A DNA stretch of 64,000 bases from Omnitrophica WOR_2 bacterium RIFOXYA2_FULL_38_17 (GTDB lineage Bacteria > Omnitrophota > Gorgyraeia > Zapsychrales > Zapsychraceae), in contig MHHG01000027.1 of the NCBI GenBank assembly GCA_001805965.1, positions 477 to 64,476 on the forward strand. Direction: 5' to 3'. Made by a program: the position numbers and the translations under genes. Below the pieces are notes generated by a model that was not told the DNA's origin, made no database searches, and worked only from the letters and a program-made list of their open reading frames with translations. Shown here in pieces: positions 33,516 through 63,345 of the stretch (position 1 is its first letter; each line of letters starts with the position of its first letter).

Positions 33516-33535
33516 CTAAAAAAACATTTTAATAC

Positions 33536-33551: not shown

Positions 33552-33641
33552 ATATTTCTTTTTACGGAAAGAACTCTTTATAGTTTGGCAAGCATTGCTA
33601 GTTATACGACTATTCTTATTTTCTAATAAAAAATAAAAATT

Positions 33642-33848
33642 TCAAGTATTTTTATCTTTTTCTTTGATAGACACTATTATCTTTGCGGGTTTCTCTCCCT
33701 CCATGCCAAACAAACCCTTCTTCTCTTCACAAACAATTTTAATCAAAACCTCGTCTCTGGTTGCCTTAAGAAGCTTTAGTGCCTTGTTTATAGCATCTTC
33801 TACCGTGCTTCCCTCTATTTCAATACTCTTTGGTAAGTTTTCATCCAT
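33642..33848 (-). CDS. Jag/KhpB N-terminal domain protein (Jag_N only, no KH/R3H)
   Basis: A 68-aa protein (EIEGSTVEDAINKALKLLKATRDEVLIKIVCEEKKGLFG) matching the Jag_N domain. It sits in the jag position immediately after yidC. Confidence 0.55.
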   Translation of the reverse strand: MDENLPKSIEIEGSTVEDAINKALKLLKATRDEVLIKIVCEEKKGLFGMEGEKPAKIIVSIKEKDKNT

Positions 33849-35504
33849 TTACACCACCTTTGGCTCTTTGGACATTTTCCACTGAGTAAACGTTGAAAAA
33901 AGATAAAACATTGTAAAATACAAAGTCAGTCCGCTTGCAAATTTATAAAAGATAAAGCCTAAAAACAAAGGAAAAATCCTGCTCATCATTTTTTGCTGAG
34001 CAAGTTGAGCAGGATCGGCAGCTGTCATATTTTGTGTTGATAATTTTTGTTGAAAATACATAACTATCATCATGATTAGAGGCAAAATATTGATTTCATT
34101 ACCAATAATAGGAATGTTTTGTGGCCATGTGGGAGGAAAAACAAACAATCTATCTGGCGCAGATAAATCCTTTATCCATAAAAATCCTGCCCCTTTTAAA
34201 GAAACAGAGCGCCATAAAACTTGATATAGCCCAATAAAAACCGGCATTTGCAGTAGCATCGGCAAGCATCCGCCCAATGGATTAATCTTGTTTTCTTTAT
34301 ATATTTTCATCATTTCCTCATTCATTTTCTGAGGATTGTTTTTATATTTTTCCTTTAAAGCGTTGACCATTGGTTGCATAGATTGCATTCTCTTCATTGA
34401 CACCATTGACCTTTTTGTTAAAGGATACATCGAAAAATAAATCACAACGCTTATTAAAAGAATACATACTCCCCAGTTTGGAACAATATTATACATTAAA
34501 TCCATAATTGAATGTATAAACTTTGCAATTGTGTCAAATAGGCCAAAACGATAATATTTCCTAATTTTTTCAAAAGAATAATCAAACTTTTTCAATATAC
34601 TTAACTTTTCAGGCCCAAAATAGCAAATAAACGATAGAGATTCTTCCTGATCCTTACTTCCATTTACAAACAGTGGCTCTATTTCTACCTTAAGCCTTTC
34701 CTTATCAATAGGATTCAGAGAAAAACCTTTTGTTTCAAATAAAGGCTTAAATATGGCGCAGTAATATCTGTTCCTAAAACCAACCCAATTAATGCTATCC
34801 TGCTTTACCATCCTATCTTTAGGTGAAAACTTAAAAGCATTGTTTTTTCTAATCATTTCTTTTGTAGAAAAAACAACATATTCATTTAACGATTTATCTG
34901 TTGATCTAGAAGAATCTCCTCCATGCTTACTCACACCATTGTCCAGACTGGACATATCAGCTGTGTATATTCCAATTGCCAGTTCTGACAGATTGGACAT
35001 TTTAGTCTTTCCTACAATCGAAATATCTACCTGAACGGAATAATCCTCTTTTCCCAAAACAAAGTTTTTAGTAACCAAATAATTTTCATCTTCATATGTA
35101 TAAGAAACTGATCTGTCAGTTTTTTCAGTAAGAACAAATTCTACATTTTCAAGACCAAAAACACTACCTATTTTATTCAAAGGTAGCATCTCTTCATATT
35201 TTTTAATAAAAACACTATCTAGAGTTCCTCCAATATTTGAAGTTCCTAAATCAAGCGTGTCTCCCTCAATCAATGATATTTTTTTGTTTTTAAAATCCAC
35301 CTGCAGAGGAAGAGAATCCGATTCATTGTCCATGGATGTCTCTTGTTCGTCAGAAGGGAGGGGCTTTAATATATCCTGTTGCCCTGAAATAGTTTGCGTT
35401 TTCTCAATATTGGAAGTATTCTTAACTGGTTTTGGCGTGACAGCTTGCCATAGATATAATGTTAAAAATGACAAAATCACAGCTAATAAAAATCTTTTTT
35501 CCAT
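33849..35504 (-). CDS. yidC: Membrane protein insertase YidC
   Basis: It has an N-terminal TM helix, a large periplasmic domain and a C-terminal 5-TM 60-kDa_inner_membrane core (PLGGCLPMLLQMPVFIGLY). Confidence 0.9.
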   Translation of the reverse strand: MEKRFLLAVILSFLTLYLWQAVTPKPVKNTSNIEKTQTISGQQDILKPLPSDEQETSMDNESDSLPLQVDFKNKKISLIEGDTLDLGTSNIGGTLDSVFIKKYEEMLPLNKIGSVFGLENVEFVLTEKTDRSVSYTYEDENYLVTKNFVLGKEDYSVQVDISIVGKTKMSNLSELAIGIYTADMSSLDNGVSKHGGDSSRSTDKSLNEYVVFSTKEMIRKNNAFKFSPKDRMVKQDSINWVGFRNRYYCAIFKPLFETKGFSLNPIDKERLKVEIEPLFVNGSKDQEESLSFICYFGPEKLSILKKFDYSFEKIRKYYRFGLFDTIAKFIHSIMDLMYNIVPNWGVCILLISVVIYFSMYPLTKRSMVSMKRMQSMQPMVNALKEKYKNNPQKMNEEMMKIYKENKINPLGGCLPMLLQMPVFIGLYQVLWRSVSLKGAGFLWIKDLSAPDRLFVFPPTWPQNIPIIGNEINILPLIMMIVMYFQQKLSTQNMTAADPAQLAQQKMMSRIFPLFLGFIFYKFASGLTLYFTMFYLFSTFTQWKMSKEPKVV

Positions 35505-35698
35505 AATGTATTATAATCCTTGCTTGGGTCTAACAGTGTTTAGACAGAACGAGTCGTATTACCTGTTTTCCAAAAATTGTATTTGATAATCAGGGGATCT
35601 GTTTGAATTTGTATGTTTAAATTGGCAAATAATGCTTTTTAACATAATCTCGGTCTACACAGTGCTTTTCAAAAACAGATTTATTGGCCTGTTTGGAA

Positions 35699-35836
35699 TT
35701 ATTTGGTTAACTGTTTTCGACCTTTAGCGCGGCGCCGATTAAGAACTTCTTGACCATCGCTAGTTTGCATTCTTTTTCGAAAGCCGTGCGCTCTTTTGCC
35801 TTTTATATTTGTAGGTGTCTTTAAATGCTTTTTCAT
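35699..35836 (-). CDS. rpmH: 50S ribosomal protein L34
   Basis: The minus-strand 45-aa [48 protein letters not shown] matches L34. It is under 60 aa, so absent from the ORF track. Confidence 0.85.
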
Positions 35837-36434
35837 AATTTGTAGATTATATCACACGACTTTTTATAGTCAAGCGATTTCAATATGCTTTAAAAACAAA
35901 ACTTGTTAAATTACAATATCTAGCGAAAAATCAATATTAACTTTTTTATCGACGATAATAATTCGAACTATAATCAATTTTACCCTGCTCAAACAATTAA
36001 AACATAAAAATACTTCTTGTTTCTATTGTTAAACGGTTCATAAGCCTAATATTTGCTAGTGTTTTAGTGTCAGCAAAATATTTAATTTGAAATAAAAATT
36101 TTCTCTGTTATAATATGGCACTTTAGTTATATTTTATTGCGCTTCCAATAAGTCTGTTGTTACCATGACTTTTTTGTTGCAATTTAGCATTAACTCTTGT
36201 AATCTTTGGTACAAGGGGCCGAAATATAACACAATCGGTTTTATTCTTTAACAAGTCGCTTTGCCAATACTTGCCGTAAAGTAATCCATTATATCGGGGC
36301 TAAAGAATCCACACCTGTGGAAAACTTGTTAATACTGTTATTGTTTCTGTAATTCATTTATTTTCAACATATTACGTCTTTGCAAATTAATCTTTTAAAC
36401 TTTAACTCCTCGTAAGAATCAGGAACTTGCTTAA
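35837..36434. other. Candidate chromosomal replication origin (oriC) in the rpmH/dnaA intergenic region
   Basis: A ~600-bp AT-rich non-coding region between divergent rpmH and dnaA. Gene strand bias switches exactly here. Two facing DnaA-box-like 9-mers are present: GAATCCACA at 36305-36313 and TGTGGAAAA at 36316-36324. Confidence 0.55.
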
Positions 36435-37769
36435 ATGTCTCTAAAAGCTGTTTGGGAAAATTCACAAAAAACTATAAAAGAAAAAATCGGTACAGCTTCT
36501 TATGATACCTGGTTTACTTCAATACAAATCAAAGAAACTTCTCCTCAAACGCTTTCTTTGGAAGCTCCTGATGATTTTTTTAAAAACTGGATAGTCGAAC
36601 ATTATAAAGTGCTGCTCGAGGAAATCCTTTCATCAGCAGCTTCTTTTGCTGTAAATCTGGAGTTTAAAGTAAATCCTGCTGTTTTAGAGGAGGCTCCCCG
36701 AGAGCAAGCTTCCATCTTTCAAAAAGAGTACAACAGTTTCACTAATGACACAACCAATCTAAATTCAAGGTTTACTTTTGATAATTTTGTCATCGGGCCA
36801 TCAAATCGATTTGCTTGTGCCGCTAGTCTGGCCGTCGCTGAATCTCCGGCTAAAGCATATAATCCGCTATTCATTTATGGCCAGGTCGGCTTGGGAAAAA
36901 CTCATTTGATACAAGCTATCTCTCAAAAAATATTGGAACTGAATTCAAACTTAAAAATCTGCTACAAGTCTTCCGAACAATTTACAAACGAATTGATAGA
37001 CGCTATACGACATAGATCAACGCCGGAGTTTAGAAAAAAATACCGCGAAATTGATGTTTTGCTTATTGATGATATACAATTTATCGCCGGCAAGGACTCT
37101 ACGCAAGAAGAGTTTTTCCATACATTTAATAATTTACATAACAATAGAAAACAGCTAATCATTACTTCTGACAGGCCTCCAAAGGAAATAGCAAAACTTG
37201 AAGAGCGCCTAAGTTCCAGATTTGCCTGGGGATTAATTGCAGATATTCAGCCTCCGGACTATGAAACAAGAGTGGCGATCTTAAAGAAAAAAATAGAACA
37301 TGAACCCCTTGCTGTGCCAGATGAAGTGATTCATTACATCGCGGATAAAATTAAAACCAATATAAGGGAACTTGAAGGAGCATTAATAAGAGTAACCGCT
37401 TATTCATTGTTGGAAGAAAAACCATTAACGTTTGAAATGGCAAGAAGTATCTTAAAAGATATGATAAAGGAAACAGCGAAAATTATTAGCATTGAGATGG
37501 TACAAAAAATGGTAGCTGAACGCTTTAATGTCACTTTGAATGAACTGAAATCAAATAAAAGAAACAAAAATATAGTTATGCCTAGACAAATTGCCATGTA
37601 TTTAGCCAGACAATTAACTCAGCTATCTTTGCCGGAAATAGGGGGGGCTTTTGGAGGTAAAGACCATACAACAGTTTTACACTCTTGTAAAAAGATTGTA
37701 AAAGATTTAGAATTAAACGCTGAACTAAAAAATTCTATCAACGGGTTATTGTTTGATTTAAAGCAATGA
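36435..37769 (+). CDS. dnaA: Chromosomal replication initiator protein DnaA
   Basis: AAA+ Walker A GQVGLGKTHL. The C-terminal DnaA signature (IAMYLARQLT...GGKDHTTVLHSCKKI) is present. Confidence 0.95.
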   Translation: MSLKAVWENSQKTIKEKIGTASYDTWFTSIQIKETSPQTLSLEAPDDFFKNWIVEHYKVLLEEILSSAASFAVNLEFKVNPAVLEEAPREQASIFQKEYNSFTNDTTNLNSRFTFDNFVIGPSNRFACAASLAVAESPAKAYNPLFIYGQVGLGKTHLIQAISQKILELNSNLKICYKSSEQFTNELIDAIRHRSTPEFRKKYREIDVLLIDDIQFIAGKDSTQEEFFHTFNNLHNNRKQLIITSDRPPKEIAKLEERLSSRFAWGLIADIQPPDYETRVAILKKKIEHEPLAVPDEVIHYIADKIKTNIRELEGALIRVTAYSLLEEKPLTFEMARSILKDMIKETAKIISIEMVQKMVAERFNVTLNELKSNKRNKNIVMPRQIAMYLARQLTQLSLPEIGGAFGGKDHTTVLHSCKKIVKDLELNAELKNSINGLLFDLKQ

Positions 37770-37911
37770 TTAAGTGTTTGTATGCAAGATTTTAACAGCC
37801 AAATTGTTCTTAAATAATTGAAATATAATCACTTTACACCTTGTTCGAATTATTAACAGGTACTACGTATACGATTACTATTTAGATCTTTAACTTAGTT
37901 ATAGGAAGGAA

Positions 37912-39009
37912 ATGAATAAGATGAAACTAAAAATGAAAAGAGATGATCTCCTAATAGGTATTCAAACTGTACAGAATGTTGTATCGAGTAAAGCAACACT
38001 ACCTATTCTATCTAATGTATTATTAGAGATTAGCAATAATATTCTGAAATTAAATGCAACAGATTTGGATATTGGGATTTCCTGTGCAATACCTGTGGAA
38101 TCTATTGAAGAAGGAGCAATAACTATTCCTGCAAAAAGATTTAGCGATATAATTAAAGAATTGCCTGTTGGGGATGTCAATATTTATGCAAAGAAAAACA
38201 ATCAAATTGATATTGAAGGAAAAAATTGTAGATTTAAGTTGAATGGTCTTCCAAAAGAGGAATTTCCAAAATTTCCAGAATTTAAAGACAATGAGATGAT
38301 CAGAATTCAACAGGCAGATCTAAAAGAAATGTTTAAATTAACCTCTTTTGCCGCGTCTCATGAGGAATCAAGGTATGTTTTAAATGGAGTTTTAATTGAA
38401 TTATCAGATGACCTTATAAGAATAGTTGCAACTGATGGTAGAAGATTGGCGAAAATTGAAAAAAAATTAAATTCTTCTATTAAAAAAGAGGTTAGTGTTA
38501 TTATTCCAATAAAAGCAGTGCAGGAAATCAACAGAAATCTCAAGGAAGAAGGGGAAGTCTCCTTTATTATAGGTACAAATCAAATTTTGTTCGATATTGA
38601 TGGAGTTTTGATTGCAACCAGGGTAATTGAGGGGGAATTTCCTAATTATAACCAAGTTATTCCAAAACCAATCAAAACAAAGGTCAATGTTAACACAAAA
38701 GATTTTCTTTATACTATTAAAAGGGCAAATTTATTAGCAACACCTGATTTTCAAGCGGTTAAATTCGAGATTTTTAATGATAAAATGGTTGTTTCTAAAC
38801 ATACTCCTGATGTTGGAGAATCGAGAGAAGAAATTCCTATTGAATATACTGGTCCGGAATTTATAGTTGGTTTTAATCCTGTTTTTCTAATTGATTTTTT
38901 AAAAAATATTAATAAAGAAACAATTGGTATTGAATTTTTAGGTCCTGATAAACCCGCAGTTATAAGGATAGATGATTATTTGTATTTAGCCTTACCAATG
39001 AGAATATAG
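37912..39009 (+). CDS. dnaN: DNA polymerase III beta sliding clamp
   Basis: 365 aa with a three-domain beta-clamp pattern. It lies immediately downstream of dnaA. Confidence 0.9.
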   Translation: MNKMKLKMKRDDLLIGIQTVQNVVSSKATLPILSNVLLEISNNILKLNATDLDIGISCAIPVESIEEGAITIPAKRFSDIIKELPVGDVNIYAKKNNQIDIEGKNCRFKLNGLPKEEFPKFPEFKDNEMIRIQQADLKEMFKLTSFAASHEESRYVLNGVLIELSDDLIRIVATDGRRLAKIEKKLNSSIKKEVSVIIPIKAVQEINRNLKEEGEVSFIIGTNQILFDIDGVLIATRVIEGEFPNYNQVIPKPIKTKVNVNTKDFLYTIKRANLLATPDFQAVKFEIFNDKMVVSKHTPDVGESREEIPIEYTGPEFIVGFNPVFLIDFLKNINKETIGIEFLGPDKPAVIRIDDYLYLALPMRI

Positions 39010-39096
39010 TGATTTTTAGCATAATTTGTGCATAAACAACAGGGTAGCCTAGGTGTCAATAGGATTGCAAAATAAAAAAAATAATAAATTGATAGA

Positions 39097-41897
<2,801 letters not shown>

Positions 41898-41944
41898 AAA
41901 AGAGAGTTAAAGATTCAAGAATATAGAGAGAAAGGTGTTTTTTA

Positions 41945-44398
41945 ATGAGAGACTTATCAAATAGAGAAAAGATAGTGCCCGTTTATATAGAAGAAGAGAT
42001 GAAGCAATCATATCTTGCTTATTCTATGAGCGTTATTGTTGGGCGCGCGCTTCCGGATGTGCGGGATGGGTTAAAGCCGGTCCATAGACGAGTTTTATAT
42101 GCAATGAAAGAGCTTAGCCTTGAACACAGCAAGCCGTATAAGAAATGTGCGCGTATTGTCGGTGAGGTATTAGGTAAGTATCATCCTCATGGAGATACTG
42201 CGGTTTATGATACCCTGGTTAGAATGGTGCAGGATTTTTCTTTAAGATATCCTCTTATAGATGGCCAAGGCAACTTTGGATCTATAGACGGAGATTCTGC
42301 TGCTGCTATGCGCTATACGGAGGCCAGGATGGCTTCTATTTCAGGCGAAATGCTGAAAGACATTGATAAAGAAACGGTCAGTTATGCTCCTAACTTTGAT
42401 GCTACATTACAAGAGCCGGTTGTTTTACCGGCAACTTTGCCAAATCTTTTGATAAATGGATCAAGTGGTATAGCTGTAGGAATGGCAACAAATATGCCTC
42501 CACACAACATCTCGGAAGCAGTTGACGCTGCTATTTTTCTTATTGATAACCCTGATGCACTTGTAAAACAATTAAACAAGATAGTTACCGGTCCTGATTT
42601 TCCGACGGGCGGTATTATTTGTGGGCGCCAGGGCATAGTAGATGCTTATAATACAGGCCGCGGCAAAATAATAGTTCGCGCAAAAGCGAACATTGAAAGA
42701 CAAAAAGGCAATAAAGACAGGATCATTATTTCGGAGATACCTTATCAGGTTAACAAGGCAAGATTGATAGAGTCGATCGCAGAGCTAGTGTCAACCAAAA
42801 AAATAGATGGCATTACCGATCTAAGAGATGAGTCCGACAAAGAAGGCATTCGTATAGTTATAGAGTTGCGCAGGGATGTAGAACCGCAAATAATTTTGAA
42901 CTATTTGTTTAAACATACGCAAATGGAAACAACTTTTGGCATTATCAACCTTGCATTGGTTAACAATAGCCCAAAGGTTTTGAATTTAAAACAGATTTTA
43001 GTCCATTTTTTGAACCACAGAAGGATAGTTGTTAGAAAGAGAACAGAGTTTGACCTTGATAAGGCCTTGCGCAGGGCTCATGTTTTGGAAGGATTAAAGA
43101 TAGCACTAGACAATATTAACCAGGTCATTAAAACCATCAGGGAATCGAAAAGTACGCCTCTTGCAAAAGTTGCCTTGATGAAAGGCTTTGGGCTTTCAGA
43201 GATCCAGTCCCAGGCAATCTTAGAAATGCAGTTGCAAAGGTTGACCGCGCTTGAAAGAAACAAGATAGACGAAGAATACAAAGCGCTGCTTAAAGACATA
43301 GAGAATTACCGGGCTATTTTAGAATCTGAAAAAATGATAGATGATATTATTAAAGGAGAGCTTGTTGATATAAAGAAAAAATATGGCGATGAGAGAAGAA
43401 CAGAAATTGCCGGCAAGGCTGAAGAGATTGAAATAGAAGACCTTATCGCCGAGGAAGAAATGGCGATAACCATAAGCAATACCGGCTATATTAAAAGATT
43501 AGCAGTGTCTTCATATCGTAACCAGAAAAGAGGCGGCAAAGGGGTATCTGCAATGACAACAAGAGAAGAGGACTTTGTTAAACATCTATTTATTGCCTCT
43601 TCTAAAGATTATCTTTTGATATTTTCTAATAAAGGGATTGTAAGATGGCTCAAGGTTTATGAAATCCCTGTAGCCTCGCGAAATGCAAAAGGCAAGAATA
43701 TTATCAACCTGTTGTCTCTTGAACAAGATGAAGAAATAAGTTCGATTGTTGCTGTTAAAGAATTTTTTGATGACCAGTTCTTGGTTATGTCGACAGCAAA
43801 GGGTAATATAAAAAAGACAAAATTATCAGCTTTCAGCAATCCTAGAAAAAGCGGAATAGTTGCGATCAGCCTAGATAAAGGGGATCGGCTGATAGGCATT
43901 TCTTTAAGTAATGGAAGGCATGAAATTTTGTTGGCTACAAGAGAAGGAAAGGCGTTGCGGTTTAATGAAAAGCACATTCGCGATATGGGCCGTGCTGCAA
44001 GAGGAGTAAAGGGAATTAATCTGGCTAAGGATGATGAGGTCGTAAGCCTTCAGGTTTTTTCATCAGATATTGGTAAAACTGGAAGCACTTTGTTAACAGT
44101 TTCATCAGGAGGCTTTGCGAAGAGGTCAGATTTTAATGATTATCGGGTACAGGCTAGAGGAGGCAAAGGTATTATTAACTTGAAGGTAACTCCCAAGAAT
44201 GGGAATGTTGTTGGTGTTCTGGCTGTAATGACTGAAGATGAAATCATGACAGTTACAAAGACTGGGATGATAGTTCGCTGCTCTACAAAGGATATTCGTA
44301 AATCAGGCAGAAGCACGCAGGGGGTTAAGCTTATTGTGTTGAAAAGCGGAGATAGGGTCAGCTCTGTTGCGAATGTTGTGGCAAAAGAAGCTGAATAA
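41945..44398 (+). CDS. gyrA: DNA gyrase subunit A
   Basis: The active-site region [10 protein letters not shown] with its catalytic Tyr is present. There is a GyrA-box-containing C-terminal beta-pinwheel. Confidence 0.95.
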
Positions 44399-52340: not shown

Positions 52341-53249
52341 TTGATGTTTAAGAATGCAGGTTTTTTTACACTGTTTTTGGATGGCAGAACGGAGGACACA
52401 ATGAATCTTGAAAACAAAAAACAGTTTGTTGTTATTCTTATAGCCATTGGGCTTGGTTTAGTTGCTGCGTTTTTAACTAGCCAATATGTCCAAAACAATA
52501 TTAAGGCTCAGACAAAGGCCTTGGCGCGAGATTATGGCAAACAAAATGCTGGTTTTGCAAAAGAGATTGAGACCTTAAGAAGCGAGGTCAAAAGACAGCG
52601 TGATGAGATCAAGCAGCTCGAAACAAAGCAAAGCCAATATAAACCAGGAGTTGCAGCGCAGGCTACAACTGAAAAGGTTCAGCCAGTTGTTCAGATGGAT
52701 TCTTTTTCAGTGAGAACGCCTCCTGGAAAACGAGCAGTTACTATTTTAGTTGATTCTCTATCGGCTGTTGGAGGGCTTATTAATCCAGGAGACTTCGTTG
52801 ATATTATCGGTGAGATAAAGATACCGGAAGAATCCGGTGATGCTAAGTCTGTAAAGGACGTGACCACTGTTTTATTCCAGAATATTCAAGTGCTGGCAGT
52901 TGGAACTAATTTTAAGCCTCTTGGAAGCGCTCCTGCTTATGAAGCACAGCAAAAGGCCAGATCCCTTAACATAACAGTTGCGATAAGTCCAGAAGAGTCA
53001 GGATTGATTGCCTTTGCTCAGGCAAATGGAAAATTACAGCTGACTTTAAGGCCGCCAACGGATGGTGGTTTGCAGCTGCTTCAGGTTGCCTCTTGGGATA
53101 CTTTAGCTGAATATGTTATGGACCACCAGGGAACAGAACTCATGGTTCCTCAAAAGCAAGCAAATATTTTTGAAGCAGATGACCAAGAAAAAGATGAAGT
53201 TCGTCCTTATATCCAGATTTTTAAATCAGGAGCAGAGTCTAATTTTTAG
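52341..53249 (+). CDS. cpaB: Flp pilus assembly protein CpaB/RcpC
   Basis: An N-terminal TM anchor, a SAF-like domain and an RcpC C-terminal domain are present. The probable start is the Met at about 52401 (MNLENKK). Confidence 0.75.
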   Translation: MMFKNAGFFTLFLDGRTEDTMNLENKKQFVVILIAIGLGLVAAFLTSQYVQNNIKAQTKALARDYGKQNAGFAKEIETLRSEVKRQRDEIKQLETKQSQYKPGVAAQATTEKVQPVVQMDSFSVRTPPGKRAVTILVDSLSAVGGLINPGDFVDIIGEIKIPEESGDAKSVKDVTTVLFQNIQVLAVGTNFKPLGSAPAYEAQQKARSLNITVAISPEESGLIAFAQANGKLQLTLRPPTDGGLQLLQVASWDTLAEYVMDHQGTELMVPQKQANIFEADDQEKDEVRPYIQIFKSGAESNF

Positions 53250-53598: not shown

Positions 53599-55251
53599 AT
53601 GGATATTAAAAGTATTTTTGAAAAAATAAAGTTTGTCGCGCTAGGGGTCGTTTGTGTATCCGTAGCAATTATTTTTGCCTCATCGTTGGCGCAGGCCAAT
53701 GCCCTGGATGATATTTATAAAAATCTTGATACAACGAATGATAATGAGATTTTTATGGTTGTGGGAGAGTTGACGATAGCTAAGGTTACAAATATGACAA
53801 GGCTTTCAATTACAAATCCAGATATTGCTGATATTGTTGAAGCTGACGATAAAGAGATTCTTCTTATAGCAAAACAGCCTGGGCAAACAATACTTTTTGT
53901 CTGGGATGATGCGGGAAAAAGAATGGTTTTTGTTAATGTTCAAGCCGCAGATATGGGAATGCTTGATATGGCCATCCAAAGAATAGATACTCTTTTAAAA
54001 AAGGGAAGAATTGAAGGGATAAAGTTAGAGCCTAATAAAAGAGAAGGCAAGATATTTGTGACAGGTGATCTTGCAGAAGAAAATGAAGAGATGCTTGATA
54101 AGATCTTGGATGGATATGCGGATATTATTGTGAATCTTATAAGGAAAGAAGAGATTCAAGACCTTATTCAAGTAGACATGCAAATGACAGAATTAAACAC
54201 CACTCTTACAAAGAGCTTGGGCATAGATTGGTCTGCTGGAACGAGTGGCGTATCCTTGACATATCCTGAAGAGTTGCCGGAAATGGATGGTACGATAGGT
54301 GACTTTTTTAAGATTGGAGATTTTAGCAGAACATCAATGTTAACAGCAACAGTTAAAGCTTTGTTAGAAAAAGGAGAAGCCAGGGTTCTTTCTCGACCAA
54401 AAGTAGTAGTTATAAGCGGGGAAGAGGCAAGTTTCTTGGTTGGGGGGGAAATCCCTATTAAGACAACAACTTCTTCTGCTGAAGGGACCCAAGAAAATGT
54501 TTCCTTTAAAGAATATGGTATTGGATTAACGATAACGCCGACAATAAAAAAAGAAAAAATAGATATTCAGCTAAATGTTGAGATCAGTGATGTTGCTTCT
54601 GGAACAGGAAACGAAACGTCTTTTTTTACAGAGACAACAACAACGCGAGTTCTTTTAAACAATAAACAAACGATGGTTCTTGCTGGTCTAATCAAAGAGA
54701 ACAGAGGTTCTAGCGTGCGAATGGTTCCTTTTTTTGGGCAAATACCCGTAGTTGGGATGCTTTTTAGGTCTAAAGGAACTAATCCATCAGAGACTGATAA
54801 AGAGCTGGTTATTTCAATGACTCCTACTATTTTAGAGAGAAATCGCAACAATATAGAAGAGGTAAAAGAGGAAAAGGTTGAAGAATATAGAACGACGGCC
54901 ATATATAAACAAAAAGTTTCTTCATCCTCTTCAGTTCCCTACTATTTGGGAATACCAAAAAACATGACTGAGTATGTAAGAAATGTTCAGAAGCAAATTT
55001 CAAAAGCGATTCTTTATCCTCCCGAGGCAAAAAGATATGGGTGGGAAGGAACAGTTAGGATGAATTTGCTGATACTAAAAGATGGAACTCTTGCATATGC
55101 TTTAATTCAAGAATCATCAGGGCATGAGATTATGGATGAAAGTGCTCTAAGGGCGGCAAAAAGACTTGCGCCGTACTCAGGGTTTCCTTCAGATGTAGAC
55201 CTGCAGGAATTGAATATTACTGTTCCAATTGTTTACAGCTTTAAGAAATAA
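53599..55251 (+). CDS. cpaC: Tad/Flp secretin CpaC/RcpA fused to a C-terminal TonB_C domain
   Basis: A signal peptide, BON/N-domain-like region and secretin core (VLSRPKVVVISGEEASFLVGGEIPI...) are present. The last ~100 aa match TonB_C (YPPEAKRYGWEGTVRMNLLILKDGTL...ESSGHEIMDESALRAAKRLAPYSGFP). Confidence 0.8.
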   Translation: MDIKSIFEKIKFVALGVVCVSVAIIFASSLAQANALDDIYKNLDTTNDNEIFMVVGELTIAKVTNMTRLSITNPDIADIVEADDKEILLIAKQPGQTILFVWDDAGKRMVFVNVQAADMGMLDMAIQRIDTLLKKGRIEGIKLEPNKREGKIFVTGDLAEENEEMLDKILDGYADIIVNLIRKEEIQDLIQVDMQMTELNTTLTKSLGIDWSAGTSGVSLTYPEELPEMDGTIGDFFKIGDFSRTSMLTATVKALLEKGEARVLSRPKVVVISGEEASFLVGGEIPIKTTTSSAEGTQENVSFKEYGIGLTITPTIKKEKIDIQLNVEISDVASGTGNETSFFTETTTTRVLLNNKQTMVLAGLIKENRGSSVRMVPFFGQIPVVGMLFRSKGTNPSETDKELVISMTPTILERNRNNIEEVKEEKVEEYRTTAIYKQKVSSSSSVPYYLGIPKNMTEYVRNVQKQISKAILYPPEAKRYGWEGTVRMNLLILKDGTLAYALIQESSGHEIMDESALRAAKRLAPYSGFPSDVDLQELNITVPIVYSFKK

Positions 55252-55307: not shown

Positions 55308-57632
55308 ATGAGTGCAAAAATAATAACTATTTTTAGTAACAAAGGTGGCGTTGGCAAAACGTTTGTTTCTGTTAATATGGCTACGGCCTTGGCCCTTGCA
55401 AAGTATAAAGTTCTTTTGATCGATATGGATTTTCAGGCTGGTCAGGATATGGCAAGAACCATGAACCTGTCTCCAAAGAACTCGATTGTTGATGTTCTGC
55501 AGCAAATAGAAGCAGTTACAGACCATGTCGTTATTAGAAGGTTTTCTGCGCGACATACTTGTGGATTGGACTTTATGGCGGCAGTTAAGAATACCCGTCA
55601 AATAAGTTTAATTACGCCAGACAATATAAAACCATATCTTAGAAAAATCTCAGAAGTATATGACTTTATTCTTATCGACGCAGGAAAAGCTTTCCATGAA
55701 CCACTTATTACAGTGTTCGATTATTCCAACCTTATTTTATTAGTGGCAACTCCGGATATTTTGGCTGTTTATCAAATAAAGTGGTGCCTTGATGTTCTTC
55801 AGAGCCTGCAGTTTCCAATGAAAATGATCAAGCTGCTTTTGAACAGGTCTGAGAGCCGTGGAAGCGTTGCCTGGCAGGAAGTTAAATCTGCACTTACTTG
55901 TGAGATTTTTGGACATGTGCCTTCCGATGGCAAGGCAGTGGGCATTGCTCTTAACAGGGGAATCCCCTGTGTTATAGATAATCCAAAGAGTCATGTTGGA
56001 GAAGCTTTTATCAAGCTAGTTGATGCTTTCCGAAAGGAAAGCAATTTTGTTCCTGCAATGGATGTTGAAAAGATAAGGAGCAAAGAAGAGCTGCCTAAGC
56101 CAGGAGAATTTTGGGCTAAATATGGCATTGCTCAGCAAATGGGTACGGCGCCTTCAGGAAAAGCTTACGCTTCGCAGGAAGATGAAATAAGTATTTTAAA
56201 AAGAAAAATTCATCTAAAGTTGGTTGACAGGCTTAACAAAGAAGGCATTTCTCTAGAGGCTTTAAGCGATCCTGAATCTATACATAAGGTTAAAAAAATG
56301 GCTGAAGGAGTAGTTGGTACTTTGCTTACAGAAGAAGCTGGTGGCAAGATATCTTCACATGAAGAGAGGGTCCGTTTAGTCAGAGATATTGTCAACGAAG
56401 CTTTAGGCTTAGGACCATTAGAAGATCTTTTAGCTGATCCGGATATAACGGATATTATGGTCAATTGTAGAGACGAGATTTATGTTGAAAAGAGCGGAAA
56501 ACTTGTTCTTACTGATTATAGTTTTGTTTCGGAGGACAAGATGAGGGCTATTATTGACAGGATTATTGCTCCTTTAGGTAGAAGAATAGATGAATCCACG
56601 CCGATGGTTGATGCGCGTTTGCCTGATGGCTCAAGAATTAATGCTATCATTCCGCCGCTTTCTCTGCGTGGGCCAATGATAACTATCAGAAAGTTTGGGG
56701 CTGAAAGACTTAATACTTTTGATTTGCTAAATAAATATCATAGCGTGACCAAAGAGATGGTTTTGTTTTTGAATTGTGCTGTTATTGGCCGCAAAAATAT
56801 TATTGTTTCAGGGGGAACAGGTGCGGGTAAAACAACATTGTTAAACGTTGTCTCTGAGTTTATTCCTGATAATGAAAGAATTATAACTATTGAGGACGCG
56901 GCTGAGTTGCGATTAAAAAAAAGCCATTGCGGAAGACTGGAGTCTAGGCCCAGAAACATTGAAGGTAAGGGCGAGGTTACCATTAGAGATTTATTTATTA
57001 ATTGCCTGAGAATGAGGCCTGACCGTATAGTTATCGGTGAGTGCCGTGGCCCTGAAGTTTTAGACATGTTGCAGGCTATGAACACGGGCCATGATGGATC
57101 TTTGACCACATTGCACGCAAATACAACTAGAGACGTTGTTACTCGTATGCACTCAATGATCCTTTTAAGCGGCATTGAATTGCCTGTCAGGGCTATTAAT
57201 GAAATGATCGCTTCAGCTATCGATATTATTGTTCAGATCAATCGTTTTTCAGATGGAACTCGAAAGGTCACACAAATTTCTGAAACTTGTGGCATGGACG
57301 AAGATCACCAGCTGATATTGAAAGATGTTTTTATTTATAATCAAAAAGGGATTGATTTGGATGGGCGTGTCGTTGGAGACTATGAAGCAACAGGCTATGT
57401 TCCGGAAAGCTTCAATGACTTTGTAACGCGAGGGCTGAAAATTGAAAAGAGCCTTTTTGATAAACGTACTATTTATGTTAATACTGATGAAAAAATAGAG
57501 GTTCCTGAAGTCGAGATATTAGCCCCTGAGGAAGTAAAAAAACTAGTTGTTGGACAATCTAAAACAGTGCAACCTAATGCTCAGCCTAAACAGGCTCAGC
57601 CGCCTACTCTGCCGCCAAAGCCGGCGGAGTAG
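55308..57632 (+). CDS. Fused Tad ATPases: CpaE/TadZ-like ParA-family ATPase + CpaF/TadA secretion ATPase
   Basis: The N-terminus starts with a deviant Walker A (FSNKGGVGKTFVS, ParA/MinD type). The middle region carries the CpaF N-domain (GLGPLEDLLADPDITDIMVNCRDEIYVE). The C-terminal half is a VirB11/TadA-type ATPase with Walker A GGTGAGKTTLLN, Asp/His boxes, and a Pro/Gln-rich tail. Confidence 0.85.
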   Translation: MSAKIITIFSNKGGVGKTFVSVNMATALALAKYKVLLIDMDFQAGQDMARTMNLSPKNSIVDVLQQIEAVTDHVVIRRFSARHTCGLDFMAAVKNTRQISLITPDNIKPYLRKISEVYDFILIDAGKAFHEPLITVFDYSNLILLVATPDILAVYQIKWCLDVLQSLQFPMKMIKLLLNRSESRGSVAWQEVKSALTCEIFGHVPSDGKAVGIALNRGIPCVIDNPKSHVGEAFIKLVDAFRKESNFVPAMDVEKIRSKEELPKPGEFWAKYGIAQQMGTAPSGKAYASQEDEISILKRKIHLKLVDRLNKEGISLEALSDPESIHKVKKMAEGVVGTLLTEEAGGKISSHEERVRLVRDIVNEALGLGPLEDLLADPDITDIMVNCRDEIYVEKSGKLVLTDYSFVSEDKMRAIIDRIIAPLGRRIDESTPMVDARLPDGSRINAIIPPLSLRGPMITIRKFGAERLNTFDLLNKYHSVTKEMVLFLNCAVIGRKNIIVSGGTGAGKTTLLNVVSEFIPDNERIITIEDAAELRLKKSHCGRLESRPRNIEGKGEVTIRDLFINCLRMRPDRIVIGECRGPEVLDMLQAMNTGHDGSLTTLHANTTRDVVTRMHSMILLSGIELPVRAINEMIASAIDIIVQINRFSDGTRKVTQISETCGMDEDHQLILKDVFIYNQKGIDLDGRVVGDYEATGYVPESFNDFVTRGLKIEKSLFDKRTIYVNTDEKIEVPEVEILAPEEVKKLVVGQSKTVQPNAQPKQAQPPTLPPKPAE

Positions 57633-57650: not shown

Positions 57651-57995
57651 TTGAGAATACTCAATAAAACAAAACAGAACACAATAGCAGATAAGGCCCT
57701 TCTTGCAGATAATTTTTTAACTAGAATGGTTGGGCTCCTTGATCGAAAGTCTTTGAAAGAAGGAGAAGCTCTGGTTATTACCAGGTGTAATTCTATTCAT
57801 ATGTTTTTTATGAAATTTGCCATTGATGCTGTTTTTGTTAGCAAAGAGAACATAGTTGTTGGTCTAGTTCAAGATATCAAGCCATTTCAGCTCAGCCGCA
57901 TTTATTTTAAGTCTAGCTATGTTGTAGAGCTGCCATCCAGCACAATATTTAGATTAGGAATTGCTATTGGCGATCAATTAGCAATCTTAAGCTAA
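57651..57995 (+). CDS. DUF192-family protein
   Basis: 114 aa. The DUF192/COG1430 pattern matches ...RMVGLLDRKSL.EGEALVI..CNSIHMFFMKFAIDAVFV...VVELPSSTIFRLGIAIGD. Confidence 0.55.
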   Translation: MRILNKTKQNTIADKALLADNFLTRMVGLLDRKSLKEGEALVITRCNSIHMFFMKFAIDAVFVSKENIVVGLVQDIKPFQLSRIYFKSSYVVELPSSTIFRLGIAIGDQLAILS

Positions 57996-58143: not shown

Positions 58144-60168
58144 ATGGGAGTAGTCCACAAATTGAGAAAGGAAGTTTTTGACTTTATTATCAACCAGAAG
58201 AAGGAAGATCCCTCTCTTAGTTGTCGACAAATATCAGATCTTATAAGCAGTAAGTTTGAAATTAAAGTATCAAAGTCTTCAGTTAACTCTGTTTTAAAAA
58301 GCACTCAGTTAAGCAGTTCAGTGGGAAGACGGGTCCTAAAAAAAGCGATGTCTAAAAAATTCCAAATTCCTCAACAAAAGAAACAACAATTACTAGAGAG
58401 CATTTCAACCCTTGGTTTTACCTTTGACCATAAGGCTACGGCTGAAGAGGATCCGCTGGGAGCGATCAAGGACAATGTCTTTGCAGAAAAGCAGCAGGAA
58501 GAAGGCTTTTCTCTAGAAAAACTTTCTCTGGAGCTTCAGGAGCATGATAGAAAAAAACGCAAGAGCAGGATTTTTTATGATGCAACAAACCAAGAAGTTG
58601 AAGATATAGCAGCGGCTCAAATGACACAAGGAGTACAGGGAGAAAATAAAGAAGCAAGCGCCAATAAAGAGAAGAAGGCATATATTGTTCCCGCTGGTCC
58701 GATATTCTTTGATGAGGAACAATTCCTTTATGATTTAAAAATTGCCAGAGAAGATAAAGAAAAAGAAAAAAATAATAGGCATTTGTATGATAATGCGGGA
58801 GTGGTTTTTTTAAAAGCTGCGCAGATTGATACAGATGGAGAAAATCTTTTGGGAGATCTGTTTAGAAAAAATTCAAAAGGTGTTGTTGTCGATAATTTTA
58901 ATAATATTTGTTCGGGCTTGCTGTTTCTTAAAGCATTTAATATTCAATCTGTAGAGAATATTGAAAAATCAAAGAATGATGCTTTATGGAGATTAAATGG
59001 CTTTAGAAAAGGGTATCCAGGAAGAGAAAATCTTTTTGGGTGGACGCAGAAGATTGATTTTTCAAATCAATTACAATTGGAATATCTTAATGAAAAAGAG
59101 CAGTCTTTAAGCAGTATAAAGGCTTTCAGGATCATCTTTGAGGATGCCACAAGCATTATCCTTGATGCCCAAATGAGGTCTATTTGGAGAGAGCCAGTAC
59201 AGCAAGATTTGTTTTCTTCTTTAAGTAGTGCAATGACGCTTCTTTCCAAAAAACTTATAAGCAATAATGAGTGTTTGGTGATGGATGTTTTAAGAGAAAA
59301 AGGCATCAATAGAACGGATTTTGCAAGAATTCTTGCTTCTTTTTTTGATATTATTGGCAGAAAAATGCGCAAAATTGAAGTATTAAGCGAAAAACAAGAA
59401 ATACTTGCTGAATTTACTCTTATTCCTTCAATTAAGCGCTTTTTTATTGTGGGATTTAGGCCTTATCAGGAGATTTTTAAAGAATATATTTGTAGTATTA
59501 CAGATACTGTTGAATTTCCCTATTATGACAGGCCAAGAGACAGAGTCTTATACTATTCGGAAGTAAATGTTCCATTGGTGGCTTTATTGAAGGATTTTGT
59601 AAGTATTCCTCAAATTCTTCAAGAAGAAAGGCCTTTAAAATGGGTGCTTTTAGGACAACAAAAGAAAAAAGCATCTCAAATAGCTCTTTTGACAAACATG
59701 ACTACAGAGAAAGCAGAAAGTATTATTTCAAAATACTTAACCCGTTGGCCAAGTGCATTTAATAAACAATATATAGAGGAAGGAGACAGAACAGACATTA
59801 ATAGAGAAGAGCTTAATAAAAATCAGAAAGAATATCAATGTTACGCTGGTGACTTTGTTGAAAAGGTGTTTGACAATTTTGGAGATATTTTTAACGATTA
59901 CATTTTAACCCTGCATAAGTATTGTTTAGATAAATATTTTCCAAAACAAAAAAGTGAAATTGACATAAAAACTATGGTGTCAATATTTTATGGATTGCAG
60001 GGTTTTGTAAGGGAAAGTTATGATCAATTAATTGTTACAATTTTGATACCTCAAGGGTACAATTTCCTTGATATCTTGGAATTTGCCATTAGTAGAGTAA
60101 ATGACAGACACTTAGTAACAAAGGATGGCAGAGGTATTTATGTAAGTGCTGAAAAAGTAAAAGCTTAG
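58144..60168 (+). CDS. Hypothetical 674-aa cytoplasmic protein (possible N-terminal HTH), embedded in the Tad locus
   Basis: A long ORF with a good SD (AAAGGGATAAAGTATG) and no TM or signal peptide. The first ~60 aa look HTH-like (SLSCRQISDLISSKFEIKVSKSSVNSVLKS). No recognisable catalytic motif. Confidence 0.6.
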   Translation: MGVVHKLRKEVFDFIINQKKEDPSLSCRQISDLISSKFEIKVSKSSVNSVLKSTQLSSSVGRRVLKKAMSKKFQIPQQKKQQLLESISTLGFTFDHKATAEEDPLGAIKDNVFAEKQQEEGFSLEKLSLELQEHDRKKRKSRIFYDATNQEVEDIAAAQMTQGVQGENKEASANKEKKAYIVPAGPIFFDEEQFLYDLKIAREDKEKEKNNRHLYDNAGVVFLKAAQIDTDGENLLGDLFRKNSKGVVVDNFNNICSGLLFLKAFNIQSVENIEKSKNDALWRLNGFRKGYPGRENLFGWTQKIDFSNQLQLEYLNEKEQSLSSIKAFRIIFEDATSIILDAQMRSIWREPVQQDLFSSLSSAMTLLSKKLISNNECLVMDVLREKGINRTDFARILASFFDIIGRKMRKIEVLSEKQEILAEFTLIPSIKRFFIVGFRPYQEIFKEYICSITDTVEFPYYDRPRDRVLYYSEVNVPLVALLKDFVSIPQILQEERPLKWVLLGQQKKKASQIALLTNMTTEKAESIISKYLTRWPSAFNKQYIEEGDRTDINREELNKNQKEYQCYAGDFVEKVFDNFGDIFNDYILTLHKYCLDKYFPKQKSEIDIKTMVSIFYGLQGFVRESYDQLIVTILIPQGYNFLDILEFAISRVNDRHLVTKDGRGIYVSAEKVKA

Positions 60169-60590: not shown

Positions 60591-60746
60591 ATGAAAAAAT
60601 GGAATCATAAAGGTCAAAATCTAATTGAATATGCCATGGTCGCAGCTTTAATTTCCGTAGCAGTTGTTGCTATGAGTACCTACGTGTATAGGTCAGTTCA
60701 GGCCACCCAGCAGGTAATACAAGAAGAATTCAAAGCATCACAATAA
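60591..60746 (+). CDS. flp: Flp-family type IVb prepilin (short, canonical; likely major pilin)
   Basis: 51 aa: MKKWNHKG|QNLIEYAMVAALISVAVVAMSTYVYRSVQ... It has the Flp G/XXXXEY processing motif and a single hydrophobic helix. It is under 60 aa, so not in the ORF track. Confidence 0.75.
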   Translation: MKKWNHKGQNLIEYAMVAALISVAVVAMSTYVYRSVQATQQVIQEEFKASQ

Positions 60747-60889: not shown

Positions 60890-61120
60890 ATGCTTAAAAG
60901 GATGATTCATAAAACATCTGGCAAAATGAAAAGAGGCCAGAGCACAGTAGAGTACATTATTTTGATAGCTGCTGTTTTAGCCGCTCTCATTATTTTCTTA
61001 GGACCAGGAGGGCCATTCCAGACTGCATTTAACACAACAATCAACTCTGGTACAGATGGTATGGAAGACATGGCAGACAGATTAGCTGGTTCAAGACCTG
61101 CTGCTAACAGTACCCCTTAA
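60890..61120 (+). CDS. Flp-family prepilin paralog 2 (76 aa)
   Basis: MLKRMIHKTSGKMKRG|QSTVEYIILIAAVLAALIIF. A strong SD GAAGGAGG precedes it. Confidence 0.75.
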   Translation: MLKRMIHKTSGKMKRGQSTVEYIILIAAVLAALIIFLGPGGPFQTAFNTTINSGTDGMEDMADRLAGSRPAANSTP

Positions 61121-61179: not shown

Positions 61180-61542
61180 ATGCTTAGAAAATTGATTAAA
61201 AATAAAAAAGCGCAAAACACAGCCGAGTATGCAATTTTGATATCTCTGGTTGTTGCTGGTATTATTGCCATGCAGACTTATGCTCAAAGAGCATTGCAGG
61301 CAAGAGTTCGTGATGCCGCACAGCATCTTGCTACACAAACCAATGGTTTAGGCAACACAGTACAATATGAACCTTATTATTTATCAACTGATTATAACAT
61401 TATTCGGGATGAAACTATGACCGAAAGTTATGACTCAGATGCTATTTTGAAAGGTGAAAATTCTACTAGAACAAGGCAAGAGGGTGGTCGTCAGACAACT
61501 TCTTACGATACATCAGTTGCTGGTATTCAAAACGGTCTCTAA
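61180..61542 (+). CDS. Flp-like prepilin paralog 3 with extended C-terminal tail (120 aa)
   Basis: ...KKA|QNTAEYAILISLVVAGIIAMQTYAQRALQARVRDAAQ, with Ala at -1. The Ser/Thr/Tyr/Asp-rich tail contains YEPYY. SD is AGGAGG. Confidence 0.7.
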   Translation: MLRKLIKNKKAQNTAEYAILISLVVAGIIAMQTYAQRALQARVRDAAQHLATQTNGLGNTVQYEPYYLSTDYNIIRDETMTESYDSDAILKGENSTRTRQEGGRQTTSYDTSVAGIQNGL

Positions 61543-61612
61543 TAGTAGACCTGATTGGTTAGTAACATAAGAAGTGCTCTTTAGAAGAGGTAAAATTAAG
61601 GAGGCTAAAACA

Positions 61613-61942
61613 ATGTTTGAATATTTAAATAAAAGAAGAAAGAAAGGCCAGAGCACGCTAGAATATGCAATTTTGATTATCATTATCATAGGCGCTCTAG
61701 TCTCAATTCAGGTCTACATAAAGAGAGGTATTCAAGGTCGCTTAAAAGGTGCGGCTGATGATATCGGAGAACAATTTTCCCCTGGAAACACAAATGTGCA
61801 AAAAACAGTAAGAACTATAAGTTATACATCAGATACCAATATTGGTGGTGTTGTAACTTCAGCGTTACTTAACGACGAAGAAACAGTTACCCAAGGAACT
61901 TCAAGAATTGCTAATGTTGAGCAAGAATATTGGGGAAGTTAA
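61613..61942 (+). CDS. Flp-like prepilin paralog 4 with extended C-terminal tail (109 aa)
   Basis: The start is taken at ATG 61613 after SD AAGGAGG. MFEYLNKRRKKG|QSTLEYAILIIIIIGALVSIQVYIKRGIQGRLKGAADDIGEQF. Confidence 0.7.
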   Translation: MFEYLNKRRKKGQSTLEYAILIIIIIGALVSIQVYIKRGIQGRLKGAADDIGEQFSPGNTNVQKTVRTISYTSDTNIGGVVTSALLNDEETVTQGTSRIANVEQEYWGS

Positions 61943-62237: not shown

Positions 62238-62621
62238 ATGCTAAGGATTGTTAAGAATAATAGAGCTCAGGCGGTAGTCGGCGAATATGTTATAGTGTTT
62301 TTTATTGCCATCGGAGTTATTACAGCAATGAGCACTTATTTTCAAAGAGTTGTTCAGGGCAGAATTTATGATGCCAGAGATGCAATGGTCAGTCTTACAA
62401 GAAATCAATCAGCAGGATATTTTAACGGCAACATTTTTTTTCATTATGAGCCCTATTATCAAAATACTGATTCAGAAACCTATCGCAGTCTTATTTCGAG
62501 AACTAGTCTTGTCGAGGGGGGGACCAGTGGCATTTACAGGGTCGAATATGATGATCTTTCAAGGATAACTAGCACAAGTGTGACTAAGCCGCCAAGGGAT
62601 GCAGATAAGGAATATGAATAG
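62238..62621 (+). CDS. Flp-like prepilin paralog 5 with extended C-terminal tail (127 aa)
   Basis: MLRIVKNNRA|QAVVGEYVIVFFIAIGVITAMSTYFQRVVQGRIYDARD. The tail contains HYEPYY and resembles paralog 3. Confidence 0.7.
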   Translation: MLRIVKNNRAQAVVGEYVIVFFIAIGVITAMSTYFQRVVQGRIYDARDAMVSLTRNQSAGYFNGNIFFHYEPYYQNTDSETYRSLISRTSLVEGGTSGIYRVEYDDLSRITSTSVTKPPRDADKEYE

Positions 62622-62642: not shown

Positions 62643-62996
62643 ATGTTTAAAGGGAATTTACAATTTTGGAAAAATAATAAAGCTCAAAGCATTCTAGAGT
62701 ATTCATTGATCATAGGAATAGTGACGGTGATTTTTTTTAATATGGGGACATTTCTTAAAAGAGGCACGCAGGGGATGATTAAGACGATTGCTGATCAAAT
62801 CGGAGATCAAAGGAATGGTGACCAGATTTTTGATGTTGAAGAAGGCTTTATGGTAAATGCTTTTATTGACACTGATGCCACGACAGAAAAAACAAGAGGG
62901 GAAGATGCCGGTGTCGTAACGCATTATTATAATGATAGGATGCACTCTGAGTCAACGACTGAAACACTCTTAGGCTTTCAGGAAGAAGAAGATTAA
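62643..62996 (+). CDS. Flp-like prepilin paralog 6 with extended C-terminal tail (117 aa)
   Basis: MFKGNLQFWKNNKA|QSILEYSLIIGIVTVIFFNMGTFLKRGTQGMIKTIADQIGDQ. It ends with an acidic C-terminus. Confidence 0.7.
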   Translation: MFKGNLQFWKNNKAQSILEYSLIIGIVTVIFFNMGTFLKRGTQGMIKTIADQIGDQRNGDQIFDVEEGFMVNAFIDTDATTEKTRGEDAGVVTHYYNDRMHSESTTETLLGFQEEED

Positions 62997-63030
62997 AAAA
63001 ATAAAGTTGTTATTGAAACAGGAGAGATTT

Positions 63031-63345
63031 ATGTTTAAAAGAATAAGAAAAGGTCAAACATCAATGGAGTTCCTGATCTTGATGACAGTTATTCTTGCGG
63101 CTTTTTTATCGATAGGGAATTATTTCAAAAGAGGAGTACAGGGAAGATGGAAAACCGCTGTTGATGAATTAGGAGAACAATATGATCCTAGGACGGGAAA
63201 CACTATGCTGGTACATAGGATAATCTCAAATACGGATACGCAGATCATTTCTTTAAACACCACAGGAGGCTGGTGGACGTCGAGAAGAGATATGACGAAT
63301 GTCGTTGAAACTAAATCCGGACATGTTTCCGCTGGGTCATATTAA
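63031..63345 (+). CDS. Flp-like prepilin paralog 7 with extended C-terminal tail (104 aa)
   Basis: The start is taken at ATG 63031 after SD AGGAGAG. MFKRIRKG|QTSMEFLILMTVILAAFLSIGNYFKRGVQGRWKTAVDELGEQYD. Confidence 0.7.
   Translation: MFKRIRKGQTSMEFLILMTVILAAFLSIGNYFKRGVQGRWKTAVDELGEQYDPRTGNTMLVHRIISNTDTQIISLNTTGGWWTSRRDMTNVVETKSGHVSAGSY

Follow-up and report, generated by a model that had tools for sequence, protein, structure and literature searches.

A receiver-less TadZ/CpaE-like ATPase module joined to a CpaF/TadA motor in one reading frame of an Omnitrophota Tad pilus locus

Studies of the Tad pilus machine normally treat the motor and the positioning ATPase as two proteins, and the place of the positioning protein, TadZ/CpaE, in the machine is unsettled. 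Can a single gene carry both? The question is raised by a gene, which we call tadZA, in a 64,000-nucleotide (nt) stretch of DNA (the window) from Omnitrophica WOR_2 bacterium RIFOXYA2_FULL_38_17 (assembly GCA_001805965.1, contig MHHG01000027.1, positions 477-64,476). A first-pass annotation of the window had read the gene as a single polypeptide that fuses a ParA-type ATPase to a TadA/CpaF ATPase. We find one intact open reading frame (ORF) of 774 amino acids (aa) that holds both modules. We conclude that it very probably encodes a TadZA-type fusion ATPase of the Tad (Flp) pilus machine, in which a TadZ/CpaE module without a receiver domain would couple, in cis, the site and timing of assembly to the motor.

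The reading frame of tadZA (55308..57632, + strand) begins with an ATG at 55308 and, after 774 uninterrupted codons, reaches its stop codon at 57630-57632; the other two + frames contain 57 and 80 stops across the same interval. Pfam and NCBIfam domains divide the product into four parts. Residues 1-245 (55308..56042) form a MinD/ParA-type, TadZ/CpaE-like ATPase module without a receiver (ARD) domain; they are matched by AAA_31, CbiA and ParA, and the ParA-like domain itself covers residues 3-245. The deviant Walker A motif of this module, KGGVGKT, occupies residues 12-18 (55341..55361) and includes the signature lysine K12 and the second lysine K17. Since the domain begins at residue 3 and the gap to the upstream secretin gene is just 56 nt, there is no space for a receiver domain, in line with the first-pass annotation, which had read this module as one without the usual receiver. 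Residues 246-292 (56043..56183) are a linker, poorly conserved except for an FWxKYG motif at residues 268-273. Residues 293-720 (56184..57467) make up a complete CpaF/TadA motor, with an N-terminal helical region, an N-terminal domain and a C-terminal ATPase domain. Finally, residues 721-774 (57468..57629) are a low-complexity tail rich in Pro, Gln and Lys that ends in ...VVGQSKTVQPNAQPKQAQPPTLPPKPAE; the Pro/Gln-rich tail that had been noticed earlier is this segment.

The motor half is the more readily classified of the two. Its four catalytic motifs are all present on the + strand: Walker A (GGTGAGKT, residues 502-509, nt 56811-56834), the Asp box (ERIITIEDAAE, residues 523-533, nt 56874-56906), Walker B (RPDRIVIGECR, residues 570-580, nt 57015-57047) and the His box (TGHDGSLTTLHA, residues 593-604, nt 57084-57119). 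All four are invariant in our alignments. Pfam T2SSE (PF00437) matches residues 366-646 with an E value of 5e-58, and a precomputed match of PF27713 (UCP018868) on the product covers the N-terminal helical region. The NCBIfam model TIGR03819 ("TadA family conjugal transfer-associated ATPase") matches residues 328-658 with 324 bits and does not reach its curated cutoff of 373; its name refers to a conjugal-transfer-associated TadA subgroup, and the missed cutoff says little about membership in the CpaF type. The solved Caulobacter CpaF structures 8RKD, 8RJF and 9E24 match the C-terminal half over ~355 residues with E values from 5e-112 (8RKD) to 8e-112 (9E24), and other solved relatives trail them (archaeal GspE, 1e-38; FlaI, 6e-34; VirB11, 2e-32). 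The same order was obtained by Foldseek with an AlphaFold2 (AF2) model as the query, in which 8RJF was matched at an E value of 2e-27. The C-terminal ~430 residues are, judged by sequence, an orthodox CpaF/TadA motor, and the earlier claim of a complete CpaF/TadA half with GGTGAGKT, Asp box and His box stands.

What, then, is the N-terminal half? That it contains a ParA-type domain was readily confirmed by profile searches, in which Pfam detected AAA_31 at residues 4-167 (E value 8e-19), CbiA (1e-15) and ParA at residues 4-239 (5e-12). An alignment of 51 Omnitrophota sequences shows no variation at K12, G13, G14, G16, K17, D41 and D124. NCBIfam MinD models match residues 3-246 with 85-89 bits, under their cutoffs, and the equivalog cutoffs are missed by a wide margin (TIGR01968, 89 versus 213 bits; PRK10818, 42 versus 508). 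Solved MinD, ParA and FleN structures match at an E value of 5e-15 and weaker. When the AF2 model was compared by Foldseek, the TMt score was 0.88 to 3EA0 and 0.75-0.85 to MinD, FlhG and FleN.

Profile libraries are of little help beyond this point. NCBIfam has no general TadZ model, and separate CpaE-like proteins match the same MinD models with similar scores; therefore, the profile test is uninformative on the choice between TadZ and MinD. We used a synteny test instead, in which the N-terminal half was compared with the ParA-like domain encoded by the immediate upstream neighbor of cpaF in ~55 loci where the two genes are unfused. Against these cpaE-position ORFs the N-terminal half scored 52-140 bits; the best solved MinD gave 58 bits, and the Soj protein encoded in the window gave 38. 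The separate CpaE-like proteins carry 130-180 extra N-terminal residues, which in a Chloroflexia example (L006) form a true receiver domain. Many of them have KGGxG[TCRV][ST] without the second lysine, and several have KGGVGK[ST]. Because of the scores against the cpaE-position proteins, the extra N-termini of those separate proteins, and the start of the fused proteins at the ATPase domain, the most fitting reading of the N-terminal half is a TadZ/CpaE ATPase module, deprived of its receiver and joined to its downstream neighbor. The TadZ/CpaE-like label of the first-pass annotation agrees with the 52-140 bits of this comparison.

We then asked whether the fusion is real and how widespread it is. 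Across separate assemblies in NCBI and ENA, 24 contigs encode the identical 774-aa protein, which also has a public entry as "hypothetical protein A2Y03_04570" of Omnitrophica WOR_2 bacterium GWF2_38_59. An indel at the junction that would restore two ORFs was found neither here nor in homologs. Both sets of Pfam domains are present in 119 of the 120 best homologs, which are 63-74% identical single chains of ~720 aa, and all organism-named proteins among these 120 are from Omnitrophota. Two other Omnitrophota genomes have the same locus, with TadZA proteins that are 67-68% identical, and the gene order rcpC, secretin with TonB_C, tadZA, DUF192 gene, 674-aa-type gene and Flp pilins is kept across the three genomes.

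The sole exception among the 120 best homologs is a tandem-CpaF protein. Covalently concatenated motors of this sort recur among the top matches (P0020, 1158 aa; P0121, 1156 aa; P0122, 1605 aa; P0123, P0124, P0126 and P0128). Such chains hold two to four motor modules, and P0121 has three, at residues 53-445, 453-799 and 806-1150. By their domain content, the tandem chains are another kind of CpaF fusion than tadZA.

Beyond the closest homologs, we scanned one genome per species, which returned 80 loci, and checked the reading frames. Scan coverage, if taken at face value, placed the fusion in ~60 loci across many phyla; the reading-frame check rejected this count, since most of these were two adjacent ORFs. 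In ~55 of the 80 loci the match was split over a protein of ~400-430 aa followed by cpaF, and these split loci come from Chloroflexota, Acidobacteriota, Actinomycetota, Bacillota, Planctomycetota, Nitrospirales and others. True single-ORF fusions numbered 10 of 80: five Bdellovibrionota/Oligoflexia-type loci (L001-L005), two from Omnitrophota (L007 and L009), one from Elusimicrobiales, one from WOR-3 and one from an unclassified bacterium. Among representatives of clusters at 50% identity, both modules were present in the same order in 70 of the best 150. Named fusion proteins come from Bacteriovoracia, Pseudobdellovibrionaceae, Spirochaetota and Atribacterota, and more weakly from Riflebacteria. 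The existing labels of the fusion proteins are "MinD", "CpaF", "TadA" or "hypothetical".

We placed 183 motor domains in a neighbor-joining tree, the backbone of which was star-like, its internal branches measuring 0.00-0.02. Fused and unfused motors were interleaved in it, and the fused ones fell into many small clades, the best of which reached an F1 of 0.60. On this tree, the fusion may have had one origin or many. On one point the first-pass annotation was out of date, namely its statement that described Tad systems have two separate proteins. An "atypical TadZA fusion ATPase", composed of an ARD-less ParA/MinD-like TadZ, a flexible linker and TadA, has already been described in B. bacteriovorus HD100 (July 2026 preprint, bioRxiv 10.64898/2026.07.08.737194). 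The fusion is mentioned neither in the main Omnitrophota paper (PMC10066038), nor in a 2026 Omnitrophota genome preprint, nor in the Kil paper, so that among these sources only the 2026 Bdellovibrio preprint describes it. Our findings add a phylum and a wider distribution; the fusion design itself is already known.

The two parts of the protein that lie outside the ATPase modules are less well conserved. The mean top-residue frequency was 0.53 in the linker versus 0.76-0.86 in the domains. We built an AF2 model of the full-length monomer from 51 Omnitrophota sequences, which served for fold look-up and for judging confidence in the linker and tail. In the linker, the predicted local distance difference test (pLDDT) was below 50 at residues 252-256, 260-266 and 276-291. 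Among 72 scanned ORFs, fused and unfused, FWxKYG was present upstream of the motor domain only in the Omnitrophota locus L009, and the motif was found only in the main Omnitrophota clade. The tail is more variable still: most homologs stop near residue 720 (93% query coverage), its conservation is 0.04, and its pLDDT is below 50. Four Omnitrophota homologs of 751-766 aa (P0098, P0105, P0112 and P0113) have a Pro/Gln/Lys-rich tail of similar composition without sequence conservation.

How might such a protein work? By analogy with solved CpaF, six CpaF modules would form a ring under the inner-membrane (TadB/C) platform, and this ring would use ATP to drive Flp pilin into the fiber and probably also back out. 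Each motor subunit would be tethered to its own TadZ/CpaE module by the flexible linker of ~47 residues. Because K12, K17 and the switch aspartates D41 and D124 are invariant, we infer that the N-terminal module binds ATP and forms ATP-sandwich dimers, up to three of which could surround each hexamer. The module would also bind a partner, which may be a cellular landmark or an envelope component, and would in this way set where and when the machine assembles, with motor and positioning factor arriving together at a fixed 1:1 ratio. Coupling of positioning to the motor through the fusion is plausible, and it is the same hypothesis as that put forward in the Bdellovibrio preprint. The mechanism would fit both the speculation on a CpaE outer ring in Caulobacter and the link between RomR and TadZA in Bdellovibrio.

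Several observations weigh against this picture. No tadB or tadC gene (T2SSF) was present among the Pfam-scanned ORFs of the window, nor in the 10 kb on either side of tadZA in three Omnitrophota genomes (loci L081-L084); the genes for the platform on which the motor would dock must lie elsewhere or have diverged beyond recognition. The profile libraries, which lack a general TadZ model, do not separate the N-terminal half from MinD. The solved TadZ structure was absent from the sequence matches at E <= 0.001 and from the Foldseek top 50, and the TadZ identity of this half rests on the synteny-anchored similarity described above, from which it appears probable. Moreover, the AF2 model is poor (mean pLDDT 65; predicted template-modelling score, pTM, 0.44; pLDDT below 50 in the ATPase core at residues 523-604) and is uninformative on how the modules pack.

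The genes around tadZA, all on the + strand, are those of a Tad locus. Upstream lie rcpC/cpaB (52341..53249; RcpC, E value 6e-24), which has the same position in L081-L084, and a gene for the secretin rcpA/cpaC (53599..55251) with T2SS-T3SS_pil_N and Secretin domains and a C-terminal TonB_C domain. The TonB_C domain of the secretin is kept in the three Omnitrophota genomes (53599-55251 in the window, 8259-9944 in L083 and 7772-9808 in L084), and it may be an envelope-anchoring adaptation. Directly downstream of tadZA is a DUF192 (COG1430) gene (57651..57995; DUF192, E value 2e-16), again at the same position in three Omnitrophota genomes. Between it and the pilin genes is a gene for a 674-aa protein (58144..60168), which has a weak HTH_Tnp_Tc3_2 match at residues 15-64 and belongs to no Pfam family; its positional counterparts in the other two genomes are 552 and 566 aa long. 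We considered this protein as a divergent platform and rejected the idea, because it has no transmembrane (TM) segment. It may regulate the Tad system or act as a partner of it.

Seven Flp/TadE-like pilin genes follow (60591-60746, 60890-61120, 61180-61542, 61574-61942, 62238-62621, 62643-62996 and 63007-63345). The N-terminus of each product has a G/A-Q-x-x-x-E-[YF] motif and then a hydrophobic stretch, with matches to Flp_Fap and Class_IIIsignal. A prepilin peptidase was not seen near the locus either. A gene for a 445-aa TadE-like protein starts near 63390 and extends beyond the end of the window. In the continuation of the contig (L082, 18083-22325), this 445-aa protein and one of ~80 aa, both with TadE-like N-termini, are followed by a giant protein of >1598 aa that has a TadG-like N-terminus and four TM-like segments. 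An Omnitrophota "giant ORF" is linked here to a Tad pilin cluster. Elsewhere in the window, the region 31719-44398 resembles a chromosomal origin region, with yidC, parA (soj) and parB on the - strand (31719-35504) and dnaA, dnaN, gyrB and gyrA on the + strand (36435-44398). The strand switch is at ~35.5-36.4 kb, and the Tad locus is ~16 kb from dnaA; in two other Omnitrophota genomes, the locus has the same position, a few genes after gyrB-gyrA.

The explanation that best survives beside ours accepts the architecture and differs on its use. The machine could be a predation or host-attack device, like the Kil or Bdellovibrio Tad systems, with a giant tip protein, and not an adhesive pilus for surface colonization. 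Omnitrophota have been proposed to be predators or parasites, and their Tad complexes, noted in the main paper on the phylum, have TadB/C proteins that group with those of Bdellovibrionales (PMC10066038). Prey invasion by Bdellovibrio requires its Tad machine (10.64898/2026.07.08.737194). The TadE-like proteins of 445 and ~80 aa and the giant TadG-like protein lie just past the pilins, as would suit such a device, and giant Omnitrophota ORFs flanked by pilus genes have been reported (2026 Omnitrophota genome preprint). However, the motor-domain tree resolves no special relationship with Bdellovibrionota, and the fusion is also found in lineages not known as predators (Spirochaetota, Atribacterota and Elusimicrobiales). 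We regard the predatory reading as plausible, though on balance unlikely.

A bolder and more doubtful extension can be added. The receiver-less fusion may be the mark of a distinct Tad subtype, built on an rcpC-rcpA-tadZA core with numerous Flp/TadE-like pilins and a neighboring giant TadG-like protein, its platform genes being unlinked. Omnitrophota, Bdellovibrionota and other small bacteria with a host-dependent or predatory life would use it to seize other cells. The MinD-like module might then be a cis-acting, ATP-dependent clutch or assembly switch and not a mere address label. In Omnitrophota, which would do this without a RomR-type hub, it might act through FWxKYG or through the 550-674-aa neighbor. 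This proposal is speculative, and we would not expect it to hold as a whole.

The N-terminal half might also be an independently recruited MinD/FlhG/ParA-type ATPase with another job, for example regulation by nucleotide state and not positioning. Its best profile matches are MinD models, among solved structures it is closest to MinD, FleN, FlhG and an uncharacterised Chlorobium ParA, and it has the full MinD-type KGGVGKT, the second lysine of which is missing in many separate CpaE-like proteins. Nevertheless, the scores against cpaE-position proteins, of up to 140 bits, exceed that against any solved MinD (58) or Soj (38), the separate CpaE-like proteins score similarly on the MinD models, and several of them carry KGGVGK[ST]. 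The simplest origin of the protein is a fusion of neighboring genes. Independent recruitment is improbable in our judgment, and we keep the reading of this half as a TadZ/CpaE module.

Less probable again is that an internal start in the linker also yields free TadA, so that the fused form would be a fraction of the motor pool. The linker does contain Met codons (M251 and M278), and a 445-aa database protein, P0130, begins at the FW motif. The linker consensus of 51 sequences has no conserved Met, however, P0130 is a fragmentary record with its C-terminus cut, and full-length TadZA-msfGFP was detected in the Bdellovibrio work (10.64898/2026.07.08.737194); we give this idea very little credence. 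Lastly, an assembly or frameshift artefact, in which an error in the linker merged adjacent tadZ and tadA genes, deserves practically no weight: one indel could in principle merge the two adjacent, separate ORFs seen in most phyla (~55 of 80 loci), but the identical protein on 24 contigs comes from independent sources, both domain sets lie on one chain in 119 of the 120 closest homologs (63-74% identity), reading-frame checks confirmed single ORFs in L007 and L009 of Omnitrophota and in further phyla, and the N-terminal module is without the receiver domain of separate CpaE-like genes, which an indel would not remove.

The TadZA-type fusion, as we read it, is the standard form in a large Omnitrophota clade and not an oddity of Bdellovibrio, and it recurs in Elusimicrobiales, WOR-3, Spirochaetota and Atribacterota, always without the receiver domain and with the catalytic residues kept. 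One experimental example is in this way extended to uncultivated, probably host-dependent bacteria. A natural fusion fixes the stoichiometry of the two modules at 1:1 and holds them within ~47 residues of each other, which should be of use in structural studies. As the fusion is a simple marker at the sequence level, proteins labeled "MinD", "CpaF", "TadA" or "hypothetical" can also be re-annotated by it. No new kind of system is revealed; the main use of the protein is as a comparative and structural handle on the relation between TadZ and the motor.

How does the Omnitrophota protein compare with known systems? The closest is the Bdellovibrio TadZA. Our sequence comparison used the fused ORF of Bdellovibrio sp. 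HCB288, whereas the protein studied in the preprint is from HD100. The window protein and the HCB288 ORF are colinear end to end, with 38% identity over 698 aa and an E value of 3e-164. Both are without an ARD/receiver domain, both have a KGGVGK[ST] Walker A motif, and both are preceded by rcpC and the secretin gene. The tad genes are dispersed in both; in Bdellovibrio, tadC is located elsewhere than the tadZA locus (10.64898/2026.07.08.737194). They differ in the linker, which is not alignable between them, the FWxKYG motif of Omnitrophota being absent in Bdellovibrio. The HCB288 locus reads flp-rcpC-rcpA-tadZA-tadB, so that tadB directly follows tadZA, whereas in Omnitrophota the DUF192 gene and then the 674-aa-type gene follow it. 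The Bdellovibrio secretin has BON where that of Omnitrophota has TonB_C. In Bdellovibrio, the TadZ region and linker bind the polar hub RomR, and TadZA shuttles between the poles with a bias to the invasive pole (10.64898/2026.07.08.737194).

The canonical systems of Aggregatibacter and Caulobacter encode TadZ/CpaE and TadA/CpaF in two genes. The C-terminal half of our protein is close to CpaF, and its N-terminal half is a homolog of the ATPase domain encoded just upstream of cpaF in the ~55 unfused loci. Unlike in these systems, the two are covalently joined here, the protein lacks the 130-180 aa of receiver/ARD sequence at its N-terminus, and tadB and tadC are not in the locus. With MinD, FlhG and FleN the N-terminal half has a common fold and the deviant Walker A motif, and they supply its best profile and structure matches; yet its scores are far under the family cutoffs (89 bits, where bacterial MinD requires 213), its C-terminal end runs into the linker to TadA in place of any free membrane-targeting helix, and the context is that of Tad and not of min or flagellar genes.

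A more distant likeness, by analogy only, is to the archaeal pair FlaI and FlaH, in which a VirB11-like motor is paired with a second nucleotide-binding protein that is thought to ring the motor. FlaI is a clear, if distant, homolog of the C-terminal half (E value 6e-34), and FlaH, unlike the TadZ/CpaE module of tadZA, is a separate protein. A cryo-electron tomography preprint on Caulobacter draws the same FlaH parallel for CpaE, with an outer cytoplasmic CpaE ring as a guess (PMC12637624).

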